In this document: positions 19,404-22,417 of the stretch, piece by piece | Position numbering within the stretch: position 1 is the first letter of the stretch | Layout: every line of letters starts with the position of its first letter | IMG/VR virus record: IMGVR_UViG_3300032007_000041 | Strand: one strand, 5' to 3' | DNA length: 64,000 nt | Source of the DNA: an uncultured virus (IMG/VR IMGVR_UViG_3300032007_000041) | Lineage: Duplodnaviria > Heunggongvirae > Uroviricota > Caudoviricetes | Notes under the pieces: generated by a model | Told to the model about the DNA's origin: nothing | The model's database searches: none | The model's input: the letters and a program-made list of their open reading frames with translations, nothing else | Made by a program: the position numbers and the translations under genes

Positions 19404-20945
19404 TTATTCTTCTTTATCTCCTAAAGATAATACATTTTCAAATTGCTTTTGTAATTCATCGGCAGTTATAGAAACATATCCATTAACTGTTGGGAGAACA
19501 CCTGCAAAATAGCAAGACATATAAACACCTGCTGCTTTATCCGTTCCTCTAAGTGATTTTTTAACCGTATCTGTCAAAGATAAATCATTTATTTTGTTAT
19601 TTTTATTATATCTCTTAAATAATTCTAATGAATTAAATGCTTCTACAACACCTGGAGCATACCATTTAATTTTATGACTCTTTAATCCATCAAAAATTCT
19701 ATCAATAATATTTTCTATTTGTTCTGTTTTTTCTACTGCCTTTTGTTGCAATTCATCTGCTGAAGAAAATCCATTTTTTATAGCGAACATATATGCTTGA
19801 ACATCCCTATCAAATTCTTTGTTCTTAAACATATCTACGATAGTATTATACATTTTATTGTATTCGTCACTACCATTTTCGATTTCTTTGTCATTCTTTA
19901 ATTCATTTAATAAGAATTGTTTTGTTGCATCGTTTACCTTAGCATTTATTTGATTTCGTTTCATACCATCAACAAAACCCCATATCTTAGAGACAGGGAA
20001 ACACTCATCTATATTCTTAGGTATATCTGCAACGTATTTACATTTTTCAACTAATGCTTCAAATTTCTTATCTGCCGTTTGATTTAAATATGGATTACCT
20101 TGCTTATCTCCATTCCCACCAAATACTTTTCTTAATACGCCTTGGAAATTACCATCACCAACTTTGGGAACATTGTTACGACTTACATTGAATCCACGTT
20201 CTTTTTGTAATTTATCTTCTTCAATATCTAAATCTTCTTTATATTGTGGGTCAACTTTTAATTGTAAACTCTGATTGTCTACTATTTTAACAGTTTCATT
20301 TGTAGGCTTTAAATGCTTATCATTGGTAGTTCCTTCGTTATTCAGTTTTTGAAATGTATATACTTTTACATCACCATAAACAAAAATATCTTTATAATCA
20401 TCTTGAATATCTAAATTACTACGATAATATTTTTTTTCTTCCCCTTTTTCATCAGTTGCCTTATCAACATATTGAATATGGAATCCAATACCTTTTTTCG
20501 GATTATTAACATCTAATGGAACTAAATTTTTCTCTACTATTTCCCAATTACTCCATCTTTTATGTTTTGATAATACATTTTGTACTTGTTCTATGGTGTT
20601 TGCTGTTAATTGCGGTAAACTTTTAACTTGACTCAAAAATGGTTGTATATCATCCATACCTAATAATTGTGGTAAATTTCTAATGTCTACTTTTTCTATA
20701 GAAATTGGTTTAGAAGCCAAATATGTACTTCCAAAGTTTCCAGATAATGGTGTAAATCCTCCTTGCGAGACAATTGTATTTAACGCAATATAATCAGTTA
20801 CATCATTATCTCCTTGTATCATAGGCATTGTTGATGTTTCAGACCATCTTCCCAATCTTTGAATCATAGCTAACACAACATTTTTCTGACGTTTTGGAAA
20901 CATTGTATTAAGTTGTTTTAAAACAATATTCATACACTTACACAA
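19404..20945 (-). CDS. Hypothetical protein, possibly virion-internal (likely start MNIVLK)
   Basis: 513-aa ORF; N-terminal MNIVL shared with 40842..41591; preceded by the putative late-promoter motif. Confidence 0.7.
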   Translation of the reverse strand: MCKCMNIVLKQLNTMFPKRQKNVVLAMIQRLGRWSETSTMPMIQGDNDVTDYIALNTIVSQGGFTPLSGNFGSTYLASKPISIEKVDIRNLPQLLGMDDIQPFLSQVKSLPQLTANTIEQVQNVLSKHKRWSNWEIVEKNLVPLDVNNPKKGIGFHIQYVDKATDEKGEEKKYYRSNLDIQDDYKDIFVYGDVKVYTFQKLNNEGTTNDKHLKPTNETVKIVDNQSLQLKVDPQYKEDLDIEEDKLQKERGFNVSRNNVPKVGDGNFQGVLRKVFGGNGDKQGNPYLNQTADKKFEALVEKCKYVADIPKNIDECFPVSKIWGFVDGMKRNQINAKVNDATKQFLLNELKNDKEIENGSDEYNKMYNTIVDMFKNKEFDRDVQAYMFAIKNGFSSADELQQKAVEKTEQIENIIDRIFDGLKSHKIKWYAPGVVEAFNSLELFKRYNKNNKINDLSLTDTVKKSLRGTDKAAGVYMSCYFAGVLPTVNGYVSITADELQKQFENVLSLGDKEE

Positions 20946-21039
20946 CCTTTTTATATATAAAATGATATTTTTTCTATTTGTTCTAAATAAAAAATACGAT
21001 AATACGTTTAAAACATTACCATAAAATAAAATCGTAGTA

Positions 21040-21233
21040 AATAGGGGTATACGAAATCCCTGACGATTTCAGGCGTTACTGTACACCAAATTATTTCAAG
21101 CACATCAATTCGTTTCTCTTGGCAAGCCAAGTATCACAACTCCTATCAACAGTTGCGTCTATTTTATATCCCAAACTAGGTTGGAGAGCAACAATCTCTT
21201 GGAAGTTGTTCTCTCCTAGTTGGAGGTTTTTGT
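21040..21233 (-). ncRNA. Candidate TnpB-associated omegaRNA-like structured RNA
   Basis: Successive helices on the minus strand: AACUAGG/CCUAGUU, GCAACU/AGUUGU, CUUGGC/GCCAAG, GGUGUAC/GUAUACC, CCUGA/UCAGG. G-U pairs favour the minus strand. Lies directly 3' of a TnpB-like C-terminus. Confidence 0.45.
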
Positions 21234-21315
21234 TTATGCTAATTTTTTGGTTTTTCTTTTCTTGGGTTTGATGTATTTGTCTATATAGCCTTGTCCCTTA
21301 CGAGCAAATCACAAA
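21234..21315 (-). pseudogene. tnpB: C-terminal remnant of an IS200/IS605/IS607-family TnpB-related protein
   Basis: Reads FVI[+1 T]ARKGQGYIDKYIKPKKRKTKKLA*; resembles the (Y/F)VIARRG.G(Y/F) end of Firmicutes TnpB-related proteins as I recall it. Confidence 0.5.
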
Positions 21316-21336
21316 ACACTCTCCTTTTTTTCTTTC

Positions 21337-21345
21337 ATTATATCA
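21337..21345 (-). promoter_or_regulatory. Extended -10 promoter upstream of the TnpB remnant and RNA
   Basis: TGA-TATAAT on the minus strand, followed by an AAGGAG RBS. Confidence 0.55.
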
Positions 21346-21366
21346 AACAAAACTTCAACAAAAACG

Positions 21367-21390
21367 AAAAACCACCAGAAGGTGGCTTTT
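21367..21390 (-). terminator. Intrinsic terminator of the nucleotidyltransferase gene
   Basis: GCCACC-ttct-GGTGGT followed by a T-run on the minus strand. Confidence 0.7.
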
Positions 21391-21391
21391 G

Positions 21392-22417
21392 TTAGAAAAT
21401 AGATTTAATATTTTTTGCCATAGTATTCATAAAGAAATTATTAATCTCCGTATAATTCGGTTCGTCTGGCAACGTGCTTTCTTTATAAGCACTTTTAAAT
21501 TCTTTTTCTAATTCTTTCTGCAAAGCAAAAATTTCTTTAAAAGATTTCTCACCATTACGAATAGACATAAGTAACTCGTGTTCTGGTCGATAAGTTACAA
21601 CCTCATGTTTTTTGAGAATGTCAATTCCCATAAGGTACAGCCTAATCAAGTGCATAGCGTGTTTTAAAAGATGTGGCTCATCTTTTTTACTATTACGCTT
21701 GTTTAATTTGCCATAGTTGCGTAACATATTGTTCATGCCAGCATTAATTCGTAAAAAATCTCTTAAAGGAATATGAGCAAGATTTATATCCAAGAAGATT
21801 TCTGTATCTAAATCTTCTTTTTTACTTTCATCGACAAATAGATGGAGCTTATTATCTTCGCCATATCCTTTAAACAAATCTTTTGCCATAAACATTTCTG
21901 CTTCTAAAGATTTAAGAATATGTTTTTCTTTTTCAGCTTGTGGATATGAATCCCGTGCAAGCGCATTTTCAAGCCGTCTAAGTTGAGCCGTAGCATAGCC
22001 ACCAAAAGTAGCATATGCCTTTTTAGAAAGAAATAACTCAAAATTATCCCTAAGATATTTAGAAGTTTCTGTTTGGAGAATAACATCTTCTTCTCTTGTA
22101 CCTAACATTTCAATAACATTAGGATTACAATTCATCAAAAGAGAAAGAAACTTTTTTAAAGAATAAACAACAGTATCCGTTTCTTTGTTTTCAACTTCTT
22201 CTTTCTTTTCTTCTTTCAAAGAAAGAATGTCATCTGGTTTATTAAAATAAAAACCTCGAATATCTACATCGGAAGTTGGGGTGTTTGTACCATAAGCACG
22301 AGAACCTCCCAAAGTCAAATAACCGATATTGTTATTTAAATTTTCATCCTCTCTTAGAAAACGATATTCTTTATGCTGAAATAAATCTTTATATTTCTTT
22401 TTAATTGTTTGCTCCAT
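21392..22417 (-). CDS. Pol-beta superfamily nucleotidyltransferase (RlaP/Nuc-transf-like)
   Basis: GGSRAYGTNTPTSDVDIRG, NPNVIEML, KHAMHLIRL, STLPDEP. Confidence 0.85.
   Translation of the reverse strand: MEQTIKKKYKDLFQHKEYRFLREDENLNNNIGYLTLGGSRAYGTNTPTSDVDIRGFYFNKPDDILSLKEEKKEEVENKETDTVVYSLKKFLSLLMNCNPNVIEMLGTREEDVILQTETSKYLRDNFELFLSKKAYATFGGYATAQLRRLENALARDSYPQAEKEKHILKSLEAEMFMAKDLFKGYGEDNKLHLFVDESKKEDLDTEIFLDINLAHIPLRDFLRINAGMNNMLRNYGKLNKRNSKKDEPHLLKHAMHLIRLYLMGIDILKKHEVVTYRPEHELLMSIRNGEKSFKEIFALQKELEKEFKSAYKESTLPDEPNYTEINNFFMNTMAKNIKSIF

Follow-up and report, generated by a model that had tools for sequence, protein, structure and literature searches.

On sequence evidence, the 458-nt intergenic gap between an RlaP-like gene and a 509/513-aa gene of a rumen jumbo phage houses, on the minus strand, the 3' end of a tnpB-only element of the IS605 family, i.e., the C-terminal tip of the gene together with a complete omegaRNA scaffold. 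The relic runs from 21327 to 21019 (minus strand) and consists of a 94-nt frameshifted tnpB remnant, one nucleotide and a 214-nt scaffold. The earlier note, written from the letters alone, had taken the place for a tnpB element that kept only its tip and its structured RNA, and the tails of the tip, together with the 106.3 bits of a covariance model described below, bear out this identity as a truncated tnpB/omegaRNA element. We think it probable that the truncated transposon relic is now a fossil, most likely an inactive one.

Positions refer to the window, the whole stretch of 64,000 nt that was analysed, which corresponds to bases 38862–102861 of a linear virus record of 281,186 bp (completeness 98% by CheckV) from a phage whose source samples are bovine gut metagenomes. 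Upstream of the relic lies the RlaP-like nucleotidyltransferase gene (21392–22417, minus strand; PF10127, E 3.9e-26), whose intrinsic terminator (21367–21390, minus strand; a 10-pair stem followed by a T run) is the upstream limit of the gap. Downstream lies the 509/513-aa gene (19404–20933/20945, minus strand), which belongs to no known family and for whose 509-aa product a search for relatives found none. The relic, a stretch of ~210 nt, is richer in GC than its flanks, as had been noticed before, with 0.36–0.375 over 21000–21299 against 0.245–0.30 in the flanks and about 28–30% in the surroundings.

The RNA is absent at 28 of the 29 loci of RlaP relatives, which show little synteny, and among helicase relatives only two loci resemble the window here: L040, on the contig of the sister phage L036, and L041, which is more distant and is without the entire segment, all between the helicase and about 19328 being absent. 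The sister phage is also without 946 nt of the body of the RlaP-like gene (window 21417–22362; 10-nt overlap at the junction), of which it retains 19 codons at the start and ~25 nt at the end, and in the comparison with L036 and L041 the region of this gene looks deletion-prone and variable. At 22180–22216, many short RNA-library contigs (35–127 nt, with 2–3 mismatches and loose at both ends) are stacked to a summed depth of about 500 in RNA run X7, a pile-up that is probably a short repeat or low-complexity stretch common to other organisms.

The omegaRNA scaffold and the tnpB tip

The scaffold occupies 21019–21232 (minus strand) and folds, according to model, alignment and RNAalifold, into two hairpins, a long one that bears a CAAGA loop and a short one, together with a three-way junction and a long-range helix that closes the fold; it ends in ...GAUUUUAUUUUAUGG, whereas its relatives end in ...UACGG at the right end of the transposon. 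A structured RNA of ~190 nt had been proposed on the minus strand; the RNA and its strand hold, and the length has to be corrected to 214 nt (21232–21019). Folding energy beats that of shuffled sequences in either orientation (z −2.6 for the minus and −3.9 for the plus strand) and thus favours neither reading, so that the strand is set by the match to a covariance model. This model, R3, was built from three bacterial RNAs behind full-length tnpB-like genes (Megasphaera, Acidaminococcus), with the window excluded; it is the kind of model that the earlier note had suggested as a check. Against the 281-kb phage genome R3 gives a single match, 21019–21232 (minus strand), with 106.3 bits, E 1.3e-27 and model positions 1–211 of 211, which settles the homology and fixes the end of the scaffold at 21019. 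The RNA is therefore a full-length homologue, in sequence and in structure, of RNAs found immediately 3' of full-length tnpB genes, the very kinship on which the earlier reading had been made to depend. The four RNAs, i.e., that of the window and those of L163, L165 and L167, are collinear, and RNAalifold predicts 56 base pairs for them, 16 of which carry compensatory changes, mostly in hairpin 1 and one in the closing helix GAAAUCGU/ACGAUUUU.

At Rfam gathering thresholds the whole 64,000-nt window has no match. At E-value thresholds the best match in the region is RF03065 (IS605-orfB-I), with an E-value of 0.21 in a 391-nt search and of 0.035 genome-wide for this one family, which has its best match in the genome here. 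As in RF03065, the first hairpin of the window's RNA carries a CAAGA loop, and the whole Rfam model aligns, including the sites of the long-range pairing CCGUA...UACGG, a putative helix here with changes in both partners; unlike it, the RNA scores 16.8 bits, below the gathering threshold of 94.2 bits, lacks the core GGAAUAGGUUAACCGUAAGACCUU that is invariant in 19 canonical RNAs, and has lost its gene. Five true members, taken as positive controls, score 104–168 bits. As RF03065 gives only 16.8 bits, the window's RNA is, as judged from its sequence, a divergent sub-family. With the canonical model R1, built from 19 RNAs, the window scores about 0 bits, which is a matter of sub-family distance and not of lacking homology; model R2, which includes the window, also matches the canonical member L159 with 30.7 bits.

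The 3' remnant of the tnpB-like gene lies at 21234–21327 (minus strand) and comprises ~31 codons including the stop at 21236–21234. The frame FVI/ARKGQGYIDKYIKPKKRKTKKLA, closed by this stop, can be read in the sequence as the frameshifted 26-codon remnant that had been described, and the frameshift is one extra T at 21306–21308, which is absent from L036, from a ~1%-diverged variant of the phage (X9, a DNA run) and from intact elements. That this remnant is a TnpB-related C-terminal tip is confirmed by its tail, VIARKGQGYIDKYIKPKKRKTKKLA before the stop, which matches those of L196 (VIARRGQGYVDKYIKPKKRKIPKTA), L176 (VIARKGQGYVDKYIKPKKRKSEEPA) and L163 (VIARKGQGFVDKNIKPKKSA). Between the tip and the full-length metagenome element L176, 78 of 92 aligned bases are identical, and in a blastn search of the whole phage genome with this element the tip is the sole match (88% over 78 nt, E 4e-21); in tblastn with the last 30 aa of L156, the remnant is likewise the best match in the phage genome (E 0.082). 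A six-frame search with the HMM of the protein family ranks the tip 14th (4.0 bits, E 17), a low score because the tip is too short alone. The AGGAG at about 21326–21322, which had been taken for a ribosome-binding site, aligns with the ..QGA(S).. codons of intact tnpB-like genes and is thus coding remnant. We note that in the X9 variant, where the extra T is absent, the tip is an open 25-codon frame with a GTG start behind the AGGAG.

Relatives of the element and what the phage lacks

The close relatives of the element were reached through protein representative P0186, chosen among the 150 representatives listed (of 2089) because its tail, ..GFIDKNKKPTRKRKKQTA, resembles that of the window. 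Its relatives in genomes include L163 and L165 (Megasphaera hominis) and L167 (Acidaminococcus hominis), and the RNAs downstream of these three genes are 68–70% identical to that of the window over 226–250 nt; in viral contigs, no relatives of P0186 were found. L163 and L165 are 1918-bp copies, 94% identical; each starts from a left end with a palindrome, contains a single tnpB-like gene and stops exactly at ...TTTTACGG, straight after which the two diverge, and the flanks differ in the other relatives too. These are ordinary tnpB-only elements of the IS200/IS605 type, i.e., real transposons. A pattern derived from the alignment of the sub-family finds at least 20 metagenome loci and at least 9 genome loci, and R3 matches 20 of the 20 metagenome loci. 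Seventeen of these could be assessed: eight have an intact tnpB-like gene, two a split one and seven none, the last including the window's own record (L188), its near-identical twin (L189) and three fusions of a left end with the RNA. Such decay is thus common in the sub-family, which ranges over Megasphaera, Acidaminococcus, a rumen Veillonellaceae metagenome-assembled genome (MAG), one Desulfovibrio MAG and metagenomes.

A comparison with intact tnpB elements had been recommended to define the right end. With L176 the window aligns over 310 nt at 85% identity (185/212 in the RNA), in an alignment that begins at 21327, at the AGGAG, and ends at 21019 but for two chance bases. L196, from the rumen Veillonellaceae MAG, has an intact 481-aa frame that ends in ..GQGYVDKYIKPKKRKIPKTA before the stop, and it shares 83% identity with the window across 296 nt. 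An exact 20-mer searched in genome contigs and a 21-mer searched in viral contigs gave 0 matches each, and blastn against phages and plasmids gave nothing meaningful; three exact 18-mer matches in viral contigs, considered as further copies, were dismissed as chance since no similarity extends around them. In the metagenome contigs L177, L171 and L186, a left end of ~121 nt with the palindrome is fused to a 211-nt RNA, without tnpB; the 2.2 kb upstream are 99.5% identical between L177 and L171, yet the two differ straight after the end of the RNA.

The canonical family was sampled with a pattern taken from the best-conserved part of the Rfam consensus, which yields five RF03065 members in Enterococcus and Erysipelotrichaceae genomes. 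In two of the five, the RNA starts 23–47 nt past the stop of a tnpB-type frame. A third, L135 (Enterococcus cecorum), is another gene-less canonical RF03065 RNA, with just the tip ..VHTGAAYVIARRGQGFKETKIN and its stop ahead, as in the window. The 444-aa gene of L138 is matched by NCBIfam guided_TnpB (41 bits) and TIGR01766 (32.2 bits) and has no Pfam match; its protein ends in ..HTGAAYVIARRGQGFKETKVS and that of L136 in ..RRGQGYIDTVN, each before the stop, with the same motif as the remnant in the window. The degenerate pattern VIAR[RK]GQG[FY] occurs in viral contigs at no fewer than 22 places, i.e., at least 14 family members, the tip of L036 and 7 unrelated places. The 14 comprise ten open frames of 442–489 codons, two shorter ones (L141, L159) and two cut by the contig end (L157, L160); most are on contigs of 90–400 kb, and each precedes a canonical RNA that ends in AGTTACGG(T/C), with sequences that differ beyond. 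The wider protein family counts 4411 clusters at E<=1e-5, many of them on contigs of 130–508 kb, and 2089 representatives at 50% identity.

We note that this RF03065-linked family (~443 aa; L141–L161, P0013–P0282) is abundant on phage-sized contigs, one of which (264.6 kb) carries four diverged copies with different guides. Its C-terminus reads ..KVNPAWTSW.A..YC..MKLN.H.GA..VIARRGQGY.D.. up to the stop. The motif around the third RuvC aspartate of canonical TnpB is D.NAA.NI; by eye, the putative corresponding position reads H.GA..VI in this family. The family has no Pfam match, and when its alignment was searched as a profile against solved structures, nothing related came up.

Upstream of 21327 the window has no homology to L176 (score 18, against a shuffle mean of 21.7), and in the whole phage genome neither blastn with the L176 element nor tblastn with the L196 protein finds a left end or any other piece of tnpB. 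A cognate protein is equally absent from the phage genome in searches with L138 and L163 as queries, with the family HMM on six frames (best match 11.1 bits, at an unrelated place) and with L196 in tblastn. The partner that the earlier note had envisaged as encoded elsewhere thus fails to appear in the phage: the sole TnpB-like ORF of the genome (L004, 362 aa) is of another sub-family, with an hhalign probability of 0.6% against the profile of the relic's family, and nothing connects it with the relic. This ORF lies outside the window, about 173 kb from the relic (G000:C1 about 233175–234263; L004:1093–2181, minus strand). Its product matches PF01385 only (36–38 bits), has no zinc-ribbon match and carries D142, E278 and D319, which are invariant among its relatives, few of them close (55% and 35% identity). 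Directly behind its stop lie a promoter-like TTGACA-18-TATAAT site and a GC-richer stretch, possibly a guide RNA that belongs to this ORF and has a promoter to itself; the flank of the ORF matches neither RF03065 nor R2, and RF03065 was found at none of 20 loci of relatives of the 362-aa protein.

Decay, retention and rival readings

The history that best accounts for these observations would begin with an IS605-family tnpB-only transposon, with an RNA akin to IS605-orfB-I but of a divergent sub-family of Negativicutes, that at one time occupied the space between the phage's RlaP-like gene and its 509/513-aa gene. A later deletion would have taken the left end and about 1.4 kb of tnpB, leaving the last ~31 codons and the whole scaffold, up to the former right end. 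Transcription of what is left may come from read-through out of the RlaP-like gene or from the motif TGaTATAAT.

This motif, at 21337–21345 (minus strand) and about 105 nt upstream of the scaffold, sits just outside the tnpB-homologous region and is identical in L036. It had been put forward as an extended −10 promoter; the motif is indeed present, but a −35 is absent, on which account a scan for two-hexamer promoters does not call it, and TGNTATAAT motifs number 85 in the phage genome, counting both strands (0.30 per kb); it is a candidate promoter. RNA-library contigs cover both flanking genes as well as 21250–21426 (X7, X8) and 21141–21426 (X6, depth 4), and those of a single library, X6, extend to 21141 inside the scaffold; as assembled contigs they do not let ends, strand or level be read, and the gap at 20954–21140 is uninformative on expression. 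Over the downstream gene, the RNA-library contigs of three studies all end at 20925–20953, whereas a contig from the DNA run continues.

The position of a guide would be taken by the flank TAATGTTTTAAACGTATTAT (20999–21018, minus strand), since the relatives diverge after ...TTTTACGG and the homology to L176 ends at 21019; the guide had been expected near 21045–21000, and the flank begins at 21018, inside that range. As in omegaRNAs, the scaffold ends at the right end of the transposon and the sequence beyond differs between copies. The search for matches of the flank next to a TAM, proposed in the earlier note, finds nothing convincing within the phage genome, where a 12-mer of the guide has two other matches against about one expected. 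Neither of the two is preceded by AGCAG, with which the shared left-end region begins, and three independent left flanks have no common motif for a TAM. In a transposon, the 20-nt stretch past the scaffold is simply plain flank.

Signs of decay are found in the relic and in the sister phage. L036 is without the 201 nt at 21037–21237 (minus strand), most of the scaffold, between the imperfect short repeats ATTAGC and ATTTAC. We take this difference to be a deletion in L036, because tip and RNA are contiguous in intact elements and because the scaffold extends 18 nt beyond the indel, so that L036 appears to have lost the scaffold rather than the window to have gained it. The window has three private changes at columns where 13 other distinct full-length RNAs show no variation, and two of these turn ACCGUAAC into ACAGUAAC and the terminal UACGG into UAUGG. 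By reading, with the pairing taken from the Rfam structure line, the putative CCGUA/UACGG helix retains three Watson–Crick pairs and one G-U pair and has one mismatch among its five positions. Under the R3 structure the window keeps 50 of 63 pairs, against 56–62 in the RNAs beside intact genes and 53 and 48 in two other gene-less copies, and in the three-way junction 13 of 20 against 17–20; this structure comes from distant members, and the counts are biased against the window. Compared with X9, the 214 nt of the scaffold differ by 3 substitutions and a 3-nt deletion, the 94 nt of the tip by 5 substitutions and 1 indel, and the 1534 nt of the downstream gene by 9 differences; on these small numbers no constraint is seen on the scaffold. 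The 3 nt that are absent from X9, at 21174, lie in the 3' arm of hairpin 1.

That the relic is most likely a fossil follows from the frameshift in the tip, the mutation of both CCGUA/UACGG partners, the smaller number of pairs kept and the 201-nt loss in L036, and it most likely does nothing because the phage has no partner protein and the conserved pairing is weakened. Several observations pull in the other direction. The scaffold is full length, aligns collinearly without any large gap and still forms 50 of the 63 pairs; in hairpin 1, most differences from the Negativicutes RNAs are compensatory, although these may predate the truncation. The three private changes are no outlier, as L180, beside an intact gene, has six. 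At least three assemblies (window, L189 and the X9 contig) retain the relic with hardly a change, its upstream −10-like motif conserved in L036, and the X6 contigs reach into the scaffold. In addition, an intact related TnpB exists in a rumen bacterium (L196), which makes a partner in trans conceivable.

These same observations feed the rival reading of a working orphan guide, in which the phage would express the scaffold with ~20 nt of flank, a TnpB of the same sub-family from the host or a co-infecting phage would be loaded with it, and the complex would cut or bind DNA with a matching sequence beside the TAM of the family. To the full-length scaffold, the TGaTATAAT upstream, the retention in the window, L189 and the X9 variant, and the close intact relative in the Veillonellaceae MAG, this reading can add that the wider family is common on phage-sized contigs (14 viral loci, 4411 clusters). 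The use in trans of omegaRNAs from gene-less elements has also been proposed, in those parts of the preprint by Meers et al. available to us (PMC10055086). We nevertheless regard it as unlikely, given a GC content of about 28–30% in the phage against 48% at the L196 locus, the mutated CCGUA/UACGG partners, the loss of the scaffold in the sister phage, a guide with no second site above chance in the phage genome and a scaffold with no excess constraint against X9. Somewhat more doubtful still is the stronger proposal that the phage keeps the scaffold on purpose and expresses it from TGaTATAAT so as to redirect or tie up the TnpB of a Veillonellaceae-like rumen host or of a co-infecting jumbo phage; on balance, a function of this kind is less likely than a fossil.

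Phage RNA anti-CRISPRs mimic repeats, and by analogy the scaffold, with a meaningless guide, might act as a decoy that ties up the TnpB of a host or rival and so shields the phage from RNA-guided cutting. The structural completeness and the promoter-like motif would suit a decoy as well as they suit a guide, but we hold it very improbable: the relic is single-copy and bears no sign of high expression, the mutated pseudoknot partners are those that protein binding would need, the sister phage has lost the scaffold, and we know of no role of TnpB as a phage defence. A role in cis, with motif and relic serving as promoter and long structured leader of the downstream 509/513-aa gene, could draw on the 95.5% identity at which motif and tip are kept in the scaffold-less L036 and on the lack of a terminator between scaffold and downstream gene. 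L036 does without 201 nt of this would-be leader, and the ends of the RNA-library contigs at 20925–20953 give a weak hint of a transcript start near the start codon, which together make it improbable, if a little less so than the decoy. Practically no probability attaches to the last candidate, a 201-nt mobile insertion or intron in a gene for a small membrane protein of 52 codons, with the tip as the N-terminus of the frame. The 201 nt absent from L036 are divisible by 3, and L036 then has an open frame of 52 codons with a basic N-terminus and a hydrophobic tail. Against this candidate, the N-terminus is none other than the tnpB tip, tip and RNA are contiguous in all intact elements, the scaffold runs 18 nt past the indel, the hydrophobic tail is translated T-rich flank, Rfam gives no intron match, and the exact 18-mer matches are those set aside above as chance.

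Known systems and meaning

The closest known system is the omegaRNA (reRNA) of IS200/IS605 TnpB, captured by RF03065, which likewise lies directly behind the tnpB stop, ends at the right end of the transposon and takes its guide from the flank. PATE and MITE-like gene-less derivatives also carry an omegaRNA without tnpB, and such PATE elements often encode omegaRNAs that need TnpB from other elements in trans, as stated in the portions of the Meers et al. preprint at hand; within the window's own sub-family, the fusions L177, L171 and L186 are elements of this kind. In contrast, the relic in the window is truncated on one side, with a piece of coding sequence, and has one of the two ends that a PATE possesses; because it has no left end, it cannot be mobilised. 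TldR proteins are nuclease-dead TnpB derivatives with adjacent guides, some of them on prophages, according to the accessible parts of the preprint by Wiegand et al. (10.1101/2023.11.30.569447). The window resembles their guide RNAs in having a TnpB-type scaffold in a phage and, as an idea, in a use of the guide other than transposon homing. As far as those parts go, a TldR protein sits beside a guide that matches a promoter, whereas the phage genome that was searched holds no cognate gene, adjacent or distant, and no TAM-adjacent second match of the guide.

TnpB is often phage-encoded, as reported in the sections available to us of a paper on landfill megaphages (PMC12607003). In the accessible portions of the literature on TnpB, its guide RNAs and phages, supplements aside, no description of an orphan omegaRNA in a phage was found. 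Gene-less omegaRNA elements are already known in bacteria, and the surprise would lie only in a demonstrated function in the phage.

As a fossil, the relic shows that TnpB/omegaRNA transposons of the Negativicutes sub-family have reached rumen jumbo phages, in which their decay proceeds from the left, that an RNA scaffold can outlast its gene, and that RF03065 misses a whole sub-family of guide RNAs. It also offers a test case for the question of whether a guide scaffold without its nuclease is used in trans by a TnpB encoded by the host or by a phage. If the doubtful proposal of a purposely kept scaffold were true, a phage-borne orphan omegaRNA acting on a foreign TnpB would parallel the repeat mimics and orphan CRISPR arrays known from phages.
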